Position numbers and translations under genes: made by a program
From: an uncultured archaeon
GTDB taxonomy: Archaea > Asgardarchaeota > Thorarchaeia > Thorarchaeales > Thorarchaeaceae
Length of the DNA stretch: 64,000 bases
Assembly (NCBI GenBank): GCA_964558645.1
Contig: CAZLEV010000001.1
Span: 125,568 to 189,567 of the forward strand
Direction: 5' to 3'
In this document: in pieces, positions 37,283-40,024 of the stretch
How positions within the stretch are numbered: position 1 is the first letter of the stretch
Layout of the letters: every line of letters starts with the position of its first letter
Notes under the pieces: model-generated
What the model saw: the letters and a program-made list of their open reading frames with translations, nothing else
Database searches by the model: none
Told to the model about the DNA's origin: nothing

Positions 37283-38350
37283 TTATCTCTTTCGTTTTCC
37301 AAGAAGGAACTCTTCAACCCAGCGTTCAGCCTTGTACATCTTGGTTGCTCTAGGAGGTTTCTTGAATCCATAGGCGGAGATTGACTCGAGAGCTCCACCT
37401 ACACCTCTCTTGAGAGCGAGCTTGGCTGCGCGAATTGCATCAAGGAGAATCGGCCCTGCATTCGGTCCATCAGTGACTTCCATTCTGATATCAATCCTCA
37501 CTGGAGCCGCTCCAAACTGTCTTCCATTTATGTAGAAGTATGATTCTCTGCTATTATCCATGAATGGCACAAAATCGGACGAACCCGCCACCAATGGTGC
37601 TTCATACGGGAGGTCTTGACTTACGGCCTCGCTTTTCACGCGACGCTTTCTCATTCGCCCTCTGTAGTGTGAGTCAAGCGACTCCGCACCGCCACCAACA
37701 TCAAGCTGATAGCTTTCATCTACCCGTACACCGCGTGCAACGAGAAGTTGTAGTATATTCCTGTGAAGAATAGTTGACCCGAGCTGATCTTGGATATCAT
37801 CGCCAATCAAAGGTATGCCCCGTTCTTGAAACCGTTTTTCCCATTCAGGATCTGAGGCAATCGGAATAGGGGTCCCGTTGATGAATGCACAGCCTGCCTC
37901 AAGACATGCGTTGGCATAGAATGCAGTCGCCTGTACAGATGATCCCGGCAAGAGGTTGACTGCTATTTCTGCTCCCGTGCCATTCAGAACCTTCACAACA
38001 TCCGCTTCCGGAGTCTCAGCAACCTTGACCAACGCCCTCAGATTGTCGTCGATACCATCGTGGACCGGTCCTCGTAGCACTTTGACGCCTGTATTGGGAA
38101 CTTTAGCGAATCGCATGACATTATTCGGCTCGGCAAAGATGGCCTCTGAAAGATCAAGTCCGACCTTTGACTCCGTGACGTCAAATGCAGCTACGAACTC
38201 GATATCACTAACATGGATTCCTGCAAGGTCTGGATGACTCAGCCCGATGACCTCTTCCTCACTCTTGGCATCCTTGTAGTATTGCAGGCCCTGTACAAGT
38301 GCACTTGCACAGTTTCCTATCCCTATTAGCGCTACTCTAACCTTATCCAT
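37283..38350 (-). CDS. ino1: myo-Inositol-1-phosphate synthase
   Basis: GIGNCASALVQG, GDDIQDQLGSTILHR, YQLDVGG, DGPN. Confidence 0.9.
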   Translation of the reverse strand: MDKVRVALIGIGNCASALVQGLQYYKDAKSEEEVIGLSHPDLAGIHVSDIEFVAAFDVTESKVGLDLSEAIFAEPNNVMRFAKVPNTGVKVLRGPVHDGIDDNLRALVKVAETPEADVVKVLNGTGAEIAVNLLPGSSVQATAFYANACLEAGCAFINGTPIPIASDPEWEKRFQERGIPLIGDDIQDQLGSTILHRNILQLLVARGVRVDESYQLDVGGGAESLDSHYRGRMRKRRVKSEAVSQDLPYEAPLVAGSSDFVPFMDNSRESYFYINGRQFGAAPVRIDIRMEVTDGPNAGPILLDAIRAAKLALKRGVGGALESISAYGFKKPPRATKMYKAERWVEEFLLGKRKR

Positions 38351-38503
38351 TGGAGATTCCTCTTGGTCCAGCTCGTTGTTCGGCTTCGAGTGTTCGTCTG
38401 GTCTTATAAGTTGTTCTATGGTCATAGAATAGTATGCGGTTGTATGTGACTTTTTTGAGGCCGCGAGACCTTAGGAAATGCTTATGTGGGAAGCTGTGTG
38501 TAT

Positions 38504-38752
38504 AATGGGTTGGACGACGAATCGACAGACATGAGCTTCACAATTGGCCCGTCAGGGTGGGTCAACAGAAAGCTTCGTGGCCAGCGGCTGATCTGAATGT
38601 CCTTCTACAGGAGGTTCGGCTCTCACCAGATGGTTCAGAGAGAGGCTGTAGTGGCGCGGGATGTGGGGCTGAGATGACGTTTATCCAAAAGAATGGGTGT
38701 GTTTCATAGCCCGTAGGGCACAACGCACCAGTCGATTGTCGTCCACCTCATT
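38504..38752 (+). ncRNA. Unclassified stand-alone structured RNA (about 250 nt)
   Basis: About 21-bp terminal helix 38504-38526/38731-38752; internal hairpins with G-U pairs; GAAATGCTTATG about 25 nt upstream; no ORF. Confidence 0.65.
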
Positions 38753-38824
38753 CTCTGATGACCTCGTCTTGTGGCAAGAAGCGTAAAGCGTTCTCCATCA
38801 GATCTCGGACTCTGAATAGCTGAC

Positions 38825-40024
38825 CTATTCCTGGTGGTCAACACTCTGAGCCAGAAGACTAACCACATCGACGATGTCGATATCCGATTCGACGAGCTTG
38901 GCCCCCGACTTCAGGTTGTGCTCGCAGAACGGACAGGCCGTTGCCAAGACCTCCGCACCGGATTCTACTGCGTCTCTTACTCTGTATCCCCCAATGCGCT
39001 TTGCAAGGTCGGAATCGTAGGACCTGAGACCACCGCCTGCGCCGCAGCACATCGCCTGGTCATGGTGAGTCTCCATCTCAACCAACTCAACCCCCGGAAT
39101 AGACTTGAGAATGCTACGCGGACTATCATAGATACCAAGCTCGCGACCCATGTGGCAGGGATCGTGGTAAGTGACCGTGAGCTCCTTGTGCAGTGCCTGA
39201 GGTTTGAGCTTCCCCTCTTTGTTCAGCCTATCTGCGTATTCCACGATATGCAATACCTCCGGAATCTCAATTCCCATCTGGGGGTAGTCCTTTCGAAGGG
39301 TCTTCAAACACCCGGCGCAACTAACGATGATCTGCTTTGCACCAGTGGAACGTAGCATTGCCCCTACCCTCTTGGCGTTGCTCTCAGCCTCCTTTGTTCG
39401 TCCAGTCCTGAGCATGACTGAACCACAACAAGGCTCATCCTCCGTCACCGAGAAGTCCACGCCAGCTGCCTTGAGAATCCTTGCCGTATCCTTAGCCACA
39501 TCTGGTATCCGCATCCCAGCCGTGCACCCAACGAAATAGAGGGTTTCTCCTTTGCTTGGAATATCGAGTCCGAGTTGCTCGATCCACTTTCGTCTGACAG
39601 AATTGTCTTCGTCGTAGGGGTTGTCGTGAGAAATGATCTTCTCACTAATAGCATCTCTGACATCGTTTGGAATCTCATTCAAAATGTGTCGTACCTGCTC
39701 CAGCGCTTTAGCAGGTTCAAACTCTGATGGACAGATTGCTGTGCAATTGCCACACAGGGTGCATTGATAGAGGGATTCTGCGTTTTCTGGCGTCCTTTCA
39801 AGAATACCCTCCAGAAGACCAAGAGCCACCATGATCTTTCCTCGCATGAAGCTGGTTTCAAAGCCGCTCGAGTTCTTCCACACAGGACAGATTCCATCGA
39901 ATCCTCTACTCTCGTAGACTGCGTTCCTGCACAATCCGCAGCGTCTACACTGTAGGAGTTCCTCTTTCAGATAATCCAGCTCAATTTCCACCATTTTACG
40001 TAACTCTCTCTCTTTCGAAGTCAC
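38825..40024 (-). CDS. HdrD/GlcF-like Fe-S oxidoreductase (CCG domains)
   Basis: CRRCGLC, CTLCGNCTAICP, CCGS, YHDPCH, CCGAGGG, ACPFC. Confidence 0.9.
   Translation of the reverse strand: MTSKERELRKMVEIELDYLKEELLQCRRCGLCRNAVYESRGFDGICPVWKNSSGFETSFMRGKIMVALGLLEGILERTPENAESLYQCTLCGNCTAICPSEFEPAKALEQVRHILNEIPNDVRDAISEKIISHDNPYDEDNSVRRKWIEQLGLDIPSKGETLYFVGCTAGMRIPDVAKDTARILKAAGVDFSVTEDEPCCGSVMLRTGRTKEAESNAKRVGAMLRSTGAKQIIVSCAGCLKTLRKDYPQMGIEIPEVLHIVEYADRLNKEGKLKPQALHKELTVTYHDPCHMGRELGIYDSPRSILKSIPGVELVEMETHHDQAMCCGAGGGLRSYDSDLAKRIGGYRVRDAVESGAEVLATACPFCEHNLKSGAKLVESDIDIVDVVSLLAQSVDHQE

Follow-up and report, generated by a model that had tools for sequence, protein, structure and literature searches.

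A covariation-supported gene for a 236-nt structured RNA in one family-level clade of Asgard archaea

Large non-coding RNAs with an intricate and strongly covarying fold are, to our knowledge, rare, and very few are known in archaea beyond the universal ones. Orphan RNAs that have been worked out, such as RNase P RNA, SRP RNA, 6S RNA, OLE and HEARO/omega RNA, have exposed new biochemistry. OLE, raiA, ROOL, GOLLD and HEARO are large structured bacterial RNAs that were found as orphans by comparative genomics; their function was unknown at discovery, and several were later shown to be components of RNA-protein particles (RNPs). Signature protein genes accompany some of them, oapA in the case of OLE and IscB in the case of HEARO. 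Y RNAs, which form RNPs with Ro60, and 6S RNA act in trans, bind protein and have a long closing stem. Invariant helices standing beside freely covarying ones are typical of protein-bound or tertiary-packed RNAs such as RNase P RNA, SRP RNA and riboswitches.

The locus described here lies in a 64,000-nucleotide stretch of Asgard DNA (the window, to which all positions refer) and comprises, with little doubt left in our view, the only copy in its genome of a gene for a highly structured, 236-nt non-coding RNA at 38511-38746 on the + strand, predicted to form a transcription unit of its own, for which there is no transcript evidence. We regard as established that the gene exists, which strand encodes it, how its RNA folds and where it occurs. 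With archaeal SRP (7S) RNA (RF01857) it shares a single-copy stand-alone gene, a stable RNA in the range of ~230-310 nt, 5' and 3' ends that are paired in a closing helix, a BRE/TATA promoter and a C/T-rich 3' tail. However, SRP RNA is universal and consists of a rod-like, elongated helix 5 together with helices 6 and 8, whereas the new RNA has a compact multi-junction fold and is limited to one family. In common with archaeal RNase P RNA (RF00373), including the reduced type-T form, are the multi-helix junction closed by P1, the presumed binding of protein, and invariant helical or junction nucleotides beside freely covarying stems; motifs of the CR-I/CR-V type appear to be absent from the new RNA, as judged by inspection only. 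Like OLE, raiA, ROOL, GOLLD and HEARO it is recognisable by covariation only, exceeds 200 nt, contains several junctions and has a narrow phylogenetic range. Unlike these it is archaeal with an archaeal promoter and matches none of their Rfam models, and it is moreover much smaller than OLE, GOLLD and ROOL and lacks an associated signature protein gene of the kind that marks OLE and HEARO. Finally, a stand-alone gene and a long terminal stem with conserved irregularities are found in Y RNAs and 6S RNA as well, and the mechanism that we propose below, a protein-binding RNA acting in trans, is of the same kind, but the internal fold of the new RNA is far more elaborate and the central bubble typical of 6S RNA is missing.

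The bounds of the gene were taken from a covariance model, the two versions of which, R1 and R2, match it over its full length with 165 and 130 bits, respectively (C1:164078-164313 in assembly coordinates). It sits within a 399-nt gap that separates two minus-strand genes, namely ino1, encoding myo-inositol-1-phosphate synthase (PF01658/PF07994; open reading frame listed at 37283-38425, with the real start almost certainly being the ATG at 38350), and a gene for an hdrD-like CCG/4Fe-4S protein (38825-40024), which comes after a glcD-like FAD oxidase gene. The TATA box of ino1 (CTTATAAG, 38403-38410, - strand) lies between ino1 and the RNA gene and thus excludes the RNA from the ino1 leader. 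The promoter of the RNA gene itself (38473-38488, + strand) consists of a purine-rich BRE (AGGAAATG) followed by a TATA-like CTTATGTG, ~30 nt upstream of the 5' end. An earlier note on this DNA had pointed to such an element, and it recurs throughout the family: a purine-rich BRE with CTTATGTT or CTTAATTGG precedes [TC]GGACG by ~30 nt in all 68 of 68 homologues, a GCATAC-like element is present near -12 in 68/68, and a C/T-rich run follows CGUCCAC, again in 68/68. In the source genome this run is a pyrimidine/T-rich tail (CUCAUUCUCU, 38747-38756, + strand) that we presume, by inference only, to be the termination region; the SRP RNA gene of the same genome has a comparable 3' tail, CCTTATCT. 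Transcription would accordingly be predicted to start ~27-30 nt downstream of the BRE/TATA element, to head away from the divergent ino1 gene and to end in the pyrimidine-rich tract just short of the 3' end of the convergent hdrD-like gene. A resemblance of the 3' tail (CCACCUC) to an anti-Shine-Dalgarno sequence was discarded, as it is not conserved and other genera carry CGTCCACTCATT, CGTCCTCTTTTT or CGTCCCCATC instead.

The consensus fold of the RNA is P1[P2[P3,P4[P5,P6]],P7,P8-P9]. The conserved closing stem P1 comprises 15 bp, formed by UGGACGAC-g-AAUCGAC (38511-38526) and GUCGAUU-GUCGUCCA (38731-38745); its GGACG/CGUCC part is near-invariant, and each inner-pair column contains compensatory changes. 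The earlier note had drawn a closing helix of 21 bp, of which this inner core covaries and is retained. The outer 6 bp, AAUGGG/CUCAUU (38504-38509 with 38747-38752), turned out to be genome-specific, as they pair in the source genome only, average 2.5 of 6 pairs in the homologues, which is chance level, and also fall outside the predicted transcript. P2, which closes the P3/P4 junction, pairs AGCUUCACA (38534-38542) with UGUGGGGCU (38662-38670) and reads GCUCC/GGAGC in most genera, with 92% of cells paired and compensatory changes at four of its five pairs; the ATGAGCTT/AAGCTTCGT helix that had been suggested for this region is merely a local alternative in the source genome. The hairpin P3 (38544-38565; UUGGCCCG-ucaggg-UGGGUCAA) differs in sequence in every genus and is always formed, with compensatory changes at 6/6 modelled pairs, so that the previously noticed UUGGCCC(G)/(U)GGGUCAA hairpin now has comparative backing. 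P4 (UUCGUG-g-CCA-GCGGCU at 38574-38589, paired with 38644-38660) closes the P5/P6 three-way junction; its sequences are unrelated between genera, the pairing is always kept and all 13 of 13 modelled pairs show compensatory changes.

The two hairpins at this junction are nearly invariant. P5 (38593-38619; cuGAAUgUCC-loop-GGAgGUUCgg) occurs in the family as GAAUgUCC...GGAgAUUC with a conserved G.G mismatch, a form that is almost invariant; GAAUGUCC and GGAGAUUC hardly vary, pairing is found in 97% of cells, and the helix is extended at its base by covarying pairs (CG, GC, AU, UA). P6 (38620-38642; CUCUC-ACC-loop-GGU-uca-GAGAG), with its conserved 3-nt UCA bulge, is the most conserved element of the RNA and the only hairpin of its kind in the 3.6-Mb genome. 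Its register is fixed by the compensatory variants CCCUC/GAGGG in genus g7 and CUCUU/AAGAG in genus g12, which settles the CUCUC/GAGAG arm of the earlier note in its favour.

The 3' domain is less certain. P7 (38678-38695), which has an A-rich hairpin loop and is based on the conserved element ACGUUYA, has only a tentative register: pairing of GUUCA with UGGAC, a part of the invariant GGGUGGACC, is possible in most genera and 93% of cells are paired, yet changes are almost all one-sided, a two-sided change being found in one sequence at one pair. The invariant GGGUGGAC has two competing partners, GUUCA, with which it would form P7, and, for part of its length, a partner inside P8, and derived versions of the P7 module occur in the clade of the source genome (g1, g13) and in g5 and g14. 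P8 (GGUGUGUU/AACGCACC) encloses the hairpin P9 (GCCC-gua-GGGC) at 38696-38729. P9 covaries in the 65-pair model described below. A P8 of differing sequence is retained in g1, g13, g5, g14, g7 and g2, but this rests on inspection only and lies outside the formal model, and the registers of P7 and P8 remain unsettled. While all helices of the earlier note can be drawn in the sequence, the outer parts of its long hairpin in this domain (GGGCU/AGCCC and GAGAU/GUUUC) are local alternatives to the consensus P8/P9. In the fold as modelled, the closing stem P1 would hold a four-way junction with the P2 branch, P7 and P8-P9; P2 would carry the variable hairpin P3 and the stem P4, and P4 in turn would close a tight three-way junction with the near-invariant P5, including its G.G mismatch, and P6 with its UCA bulge.

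Several lines of evidence support this fold. The 249-nt stretch 38504-38752 folds with -101.8 kcal/mol (z = -3.7), none of 200 dinucleotide shuffles being equally stable, and folding of the reverse strand is 17 kcal/mol weaker. The single-sequence MFE folds of 21 homologues have one common architecture, and when P1, inner P4, P5 and P6 are constrained, 43 of 68 sequences take the shape P1[P2[P3,P4[P5,P6]],P7,P9]. In the source genome the family consensus fold, for which it suffices to force P2 alone, has -95.1 kcal/mol as compared to -95.8 kcal/mol for the MFE structure, a cost of 0.7 kcal/mol. With an alignment made by MAFFT only, RNAalifold recovers P1, inner P4, P5 and P6, with compensatory changes at 15 of 35 pairs. 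In the R1 alignment of 68 sequences, 93.5% of cells are paired over 33 modelled pairs, as opposed to 34-51% with slid partners, and two-sided changes are found at 26 of the 33. Adding the P1 extension, P2, P3, outer P4, P7 and P9 gives a model of 65 pairs. When this model was applied to the R1 alignment, which had not been fitted to the added helices, 84.5% of cells were paired and 47 pairs were compensatory; after refitting (R2) the values were 89.0% and 53 of 65 pairs. The covariation score of R2 is 0.42 as compared to 0.18 for shuffles, of which 0/500 scored as high, and at most 0.10 for slid controls. Alignments based on a covariance model are biased towards the structure of that model, and shuffle controls overstate significance since the sequences are related; the slid-partner control and the test before fitting are the fairer measures of covariation, and both are clear. 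Genus representatives share 41-61% identity (median 52%), and the covariation among relatives that the earlier note had asked for is strong across 15 genera. A search by column statistics for pseudoknots or tertiary pairs was swamped by the complementary invariant words GGAC/GUCC and GGAG/CUCC, and the conserved GGAC/GUCC words could not be separated from chance.

The strand, too, can be read from the pairing pattern. G-U cells outnumber A-C cells in the 65-pair model by 455 to 106, which fixes the RNA on the + strand and agrees with the earlier remark that the long hairpin is rich in G-U pairs that work on this strand alone; 89.1% of the pairs are canonical when read on the + strand versus 81.0% on the minus strand.

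The RNA was found once per genome and in one clade only. By BLASTN it is single-copy in the source assembly (3.63 Mb, 37 contigs, 92.8% complete), and 10 of 24 genomes sampled within its family gave matches to the region, which for the most part fell in a core of ~75 nt. A strict pattern for this core gave one match each in 21 of 86 family genomes and none in 314 genomes that represent 32 other families of this phylum; reversed-pattern controls gave 0. R1, which was built from 20 sequences and for which a full-length match covers model positions 1-236, detected one full-length copy (30-187 bits) in 71 of the 86 family genomes, including 22 of 23 genomes of high quality, and in 15 of 16 genera of the family. 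Weak second matches in two genomes (G355 and G378; loci L099 and L100) are false positives. In an even sample of the phylum R2 matched 24/26 family genomes and 0/125 genomes from 26 other families, a search in which very weak relatives could have escaped the stricter Infernal filters. Among metagenome contigs, 21 stretches contain the core pattern and 19 a full-length model match in the same gene context, two of the 19 representing the same place on one contig. The collection thus amounts to ~87 natural sequences, 68 from genomes and 18-19 from metagenomes. No real match was obtained in four genomes of genus g10, where the gap between hdrD and ino1 at the syntenic site is only ~125 nt. This is a clean natural loss of the RNA gene and shows that at least one lineage can do without the RNA. 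The sister family f2 likewise has no copy, and the gap of just 155 nt beside ino1 leaves no room for one. As far as searched, the RNA family is confined to one family-level Asgard clade, so that of the earlier inference of an unnamed stand-alone Asgard RNA the words unnamed and stand-alone hold, whereas it is not general to Asgard archaea.

What, then, does this RNA do? The best explanation overall, to which we assign a probability of about 0.5, is that of a stand-alone RNA gene whose product has a trans-acting role as the scaffold of an RNP. That the RNA acts in trans within a lineage-specific RNP, as its scaffold or as a subunit, is inferred, and taken by itself it remains a tentative proposition. 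It rests on the presence of invariant helices within covarying stems in an RNA that occurs in one copy and near-universally in its clade, which suggests a trans-acting RNA that is bound by protein or packed by tertiary contacts, and on the finding that the gene comes with a promoter of its own and is not consistently followed by a downstream gene, which points to a role in trans. The invariant elements P5, P6, ACGUUCA and GGGUGGACC would provide the surface for protein recognition or tertiary contacts, whereas the variable stems (the inner part of P1, P3, P4, P8 and P9) would merely preserve geometry. No partner protein has been identified: Ro60/TROVE is absent, and the distribution of an Ssb-like family discussed below does not follow that of the RNA. 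Nor did we find, in the source genome, convincing second P5- or P6-like sites that might mark the mRNA of an autoregulated partner. A bolder version, in which the RNA is the core of an unknown RNP machine peculiar to Thorarchaeota-type Asgard archaea, with the invariant P4-P5-P6 junction and GGGUGGACC as its catalytic or substrate-recognition centre, appears unlikely on present evidence.

Two alternatives to a trans-acting scaffold start from the neighbouring genes. The position of the RNA is syntenic across genera. In ~40 of 49 genome loci, and on most metagenome contigs, 54-170 nt separate its 5' end from the start of the divergent ino1 gene. On the 3' side it faces the convergent hdrD-like gene at a distance of 12-900 nt across loci, and in the source genome and at least eight other genera this gene, 12-200 nt off, is the next one downstream. 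In several genera, however, a same-strand gene for an Ssb-like OB-fold protein (PF21473, 135-177 aa) follows 170-240 nt 3' of the RNA (g5, g6, g11, g2 and g7), as it does downstream of the RNA on four metagenome contigs, and where the distance between RNA and hdrD is 580-900 nt it lies between the two in most of the loci examined (L048 has an unrelated ORF). A degraded remnant downstream of the RNA in the sister genome G001 suggests that RNA followed by ssb was the ancestral order. The RNA could thus be tied to this gene as a structured leader or co-transcript, or be the RNA partner of its product, and the earlier statement that the RNA is not a leader, while valid for the source genome, does not simply extend to these sister genera. 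We nevertheless consider such a link quite unlikely. The RNA is intact without ssb at the locus in the source genome, in g4, g13, g9, g12, g14 and g15 and in parts of g3, g6 and g7, which makes a leader role unlikely, and the hallmark of a cis-regulatory leader, a place in the 5' UTR of a same-strand gene in most representatives, is lacking. Moreover, a TATA-like box located 35-45 nt past the RNA end in the ssb-bearing loci indicates that ssb probably has its own promoter. The Ssb-like family has five paralogues elsewhere in the source genome and close orthologues (64-67% identity) in g10, and as a multi-copy family present also in this RNA-less genus it was rejected as obligate partner. From the distribution of both, the RNA survives the loss of its ssb neighbour and the Ssb-like protein the loss of the RNA. 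On the other side of the gene, the constant vicinity of ino1 might mean that the RNA belongs to the ino1 regulon or takes part in its regulation through a shared divergent control region, for example as a sensor or trans-regulator in inositol, lipid or compatible-solute metabolism. In agreement with this, insertions are far commoner downstream of the RNA than between RNA and ino1, and the two TATA boxes stand on either side of a conserved palindrome, ATTCTATnnnnATAGAAT, which in g4 is only 3-4 nt away from each of them. Then again, the palindrome keeps a fixed distance to the TATA box of ino1 and a variable one to that of the RNA, and the glcD-hdrD-ino1 block is syntenic family-wide, including the RNA-less g10, so that adjacency may be simply inherited. 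Two genomes (G021 and G017) keep the RNA without ino1 within 1.5 kb, and neither g10 nor the sister family needs the RNA for a functioning ino1. Antisense pairing with the ino1 mRNA does not come to the aid of this explanation either: the 8-nt complementarity of the P5 3' strand to the ribosome-binding region of ino1 (leader GAAUCUCC) and that of leader AGCCGAAC to GUUCGGCU are not conserved in other genera and are attributed to chance. All in all, a role tied to ino1 has only a rather small chance of being correct.

The remaining alternatives concern the nature of the RNA itself rather than its neighbours. Instead of scaffolding a protein it might bind a ligand or be catalytic, as an orphan riboswitch-like sensor acting in trans or as a ribozyme. 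A fold as complex as this, with several junctions and with invariant nucleotides surrounding a tight three-way one, would fit this view, as would the two mutually exclusive, near-iso-energetic folds in the source genome (-95.8 and -95.1 kcal/mol) and the two partners that compete for GGGUGGAC. However, the RNA lacks an expression platform and in most genomes is not followed by a downstream gene, none of the known riboswitch or ribozyme models matches it, the alternative helices have no covariation of their own, and the conserved GGAC/GUCC words could not be told from chance; we regard this possibility as improbable. A known universal RNA (such as RNase P RNA, SRP RNA, a tRNA-like RNA or Y RNA) that is reduced, or highly diverged, so that the Rfam models miss it, would share with our RNA such generic traits as a closing stem, a multi-junction fold and a single-copy stand-alone gene with its own promoter. 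Yet the source genome contains its true RNase P RNA (RF00373; C4:209083-209421, 339 nt, canonical, 153.9 bits) and SRP RNA (RF01857; C6:184495-184807, 102.5 bits) on other contigs, and the RNA locus scores nothing against either model. None of the 4227 models of Rfam 15 matched anywhere in the window at the gathering score, nor did any match 38380-38880 on either strand at E<=10 with permissive filters, ARAGORN detected no tRNA or tmRNA gene in 38300-38900, and a TROVE/Ro60 gene (PF05731) was not found in the 92.8% complete source genome, which speaks against a Y RNA/Ro60 identity. This alternative, very improbable in our estimate, is largely refuted; the absence of SRP, RNase P and tRNA identity asserted in the earlier note has proved correct, and the database search that it proposed has matched no known family. 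Searches of the literature in full text, including recent preprints on prokaryotic non-coding elements, likewise revealed no description of such an Asgard RNA, and we rate it as a new family without recognisable relation to known ones. Hardly any room is left, finally, for the view that there is no RNA gene at all but an element acting at the DNA level (a site of protein binding, or the relic of an inverted repeat or of a mobile element) or a small protein gene. A long terminal inverted repeat and two overlapping ORFs of 50 and 53 codons might suggest as much. But the ORFs have no Pfam match, the homologues vary in length (215-256 nt) by differences spread over all three frames, and their longest open frames range from 32 to 83 codons and are not conserved, from which we conclude that the region is non-coding. 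A MITE or other dispersed repeat is ruled out by the one BLASTN copy, the one real model match per genome and the syntenic position, and the strand asymmetry of the covariation, with compensatory changes using G-U wobble on one strand only, refutes a DNA-level element.

The trans-acting RNA remains the preferred reading. The RNA is carried in one copy per genome by almost every member of a major family of the Asgard archaea, the group closest to the eukaryote ancestor, and we know of no RNA-bearing organism of this family in culture. Its size, the strength of its covariation and its Asgard host make it interesting. Against this stand its narrow range, the fact that one genus does without it and a function that is still unknown. 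With a defined gene, a 65-pair model, ~87 natural sequences and a natural knockout lineage (g10) at hand, its role is directly testable. If the RNA should prove to be only a lineage-specific regulator, it would still be a new family of Rfam grade that improves the annotation of Asgard genomes. If, on the other hand, the reading as an RNP machine were true, it would be no simple regulator and would represent a new class of functional RNA comparable to RNase P RNA, SRP RNA and OLE.

The ino1 gene, which encodes myo-inositol-1-phosphate synthase and diverges from the predicted RNA gene, is listed as an ORF starting at 38425 on the - strand, and this ORF is almost certainly 25 codons too long at its 5' end; homologues align only from the ATG at 38350 (MDKVRVALIG...). 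The stretch 38351-38429 contains a - strand TATA box, CTTATAAG, at 38403-38410, adjoined by a perfect palindrome, TTCTAT-GGTC-ATAGAA, at 38414-38429, which is kept as ATTCTATnnnnATAGAAT in almost all genera. The palindrome probably acts on ino1 as an operator or activator site, and it is possible that it is common to both divergent promoters, that of ino1 and that of the RNA. In a subset of genus g3 (loci L055, L056, L059 and L077) the RNA lies some 780-940 nt from ino1, and palindrome half-sites (CATAGAATA) are still found upstream of the RNA promoter despite this insertion.

Directly 3' of the RNA, a box C-like CTGATGA (38755-38761) is followed by box D-like CTGA motifs at 38812-38815 and 38820-38823, all on the + strand, and they are spaced as they typically are in a C/D-box sRNA. 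The sister genome G001 does not share the stretch 38755-38823, its sequence diverging right after CTCATTCTC, and the motifs are probably there by chance. The RNA itself shares its sequence with two small ORFs, one of 50 codons on the + strand (38557-38709) and one of 53 codons on the - strand (38562-38723). Neither has a Pfam match and their open frames are not kept in the homologues of the RNA; an automatic gene caller could mis-annotate them as hypothetical proteins.

In genera g5, g6, g11, g2 and g7 a gene for an Ssb-like OB-fold protein (PF21473) is found between the RNA and hdrD, for example at L049:1970-2470 (+ strand) and L047:834-1328 (- strand). The locus-linked proteins (135-177 aa) resemble, as judged by eye, eukaryotic SSB1/NABP. 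Gain and loss of this gene are patchy even inside one genus. G001 (L046) retains a degraded remnant about 110-290 nt past the RNA, and the window genome has no such gene at the locus and five paralogues elsewhere. Genomes of the family also contain a second ino1 paralogue of 41% identity (L107, G350:C11:47517-50431; also L108 and L109), and in G350 this paralogue has an Ssb-like gene about 1.4 kb away, encoded on the other strand.

In L070 and L071 (genus g2) the otherwise near-invariant P6 hairpin (CUCUCACC...GGUUCAGAGAG) gives way to another short hairpin, UGCC-gaagaggau-GGUG, with UUCA after it, so the P6 sequence is not absolutely required. In genus g10, whose genomes are smaller (2.2-2.9 Mb), the gap between hdrD and ino1 measures only about 125 nt (L105, G011, 1375-1501) and holds no trace of the RNA gene. 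This genus is a natural deletion lineage for the RNA gene and as such is useful for phylogenetic profiling.
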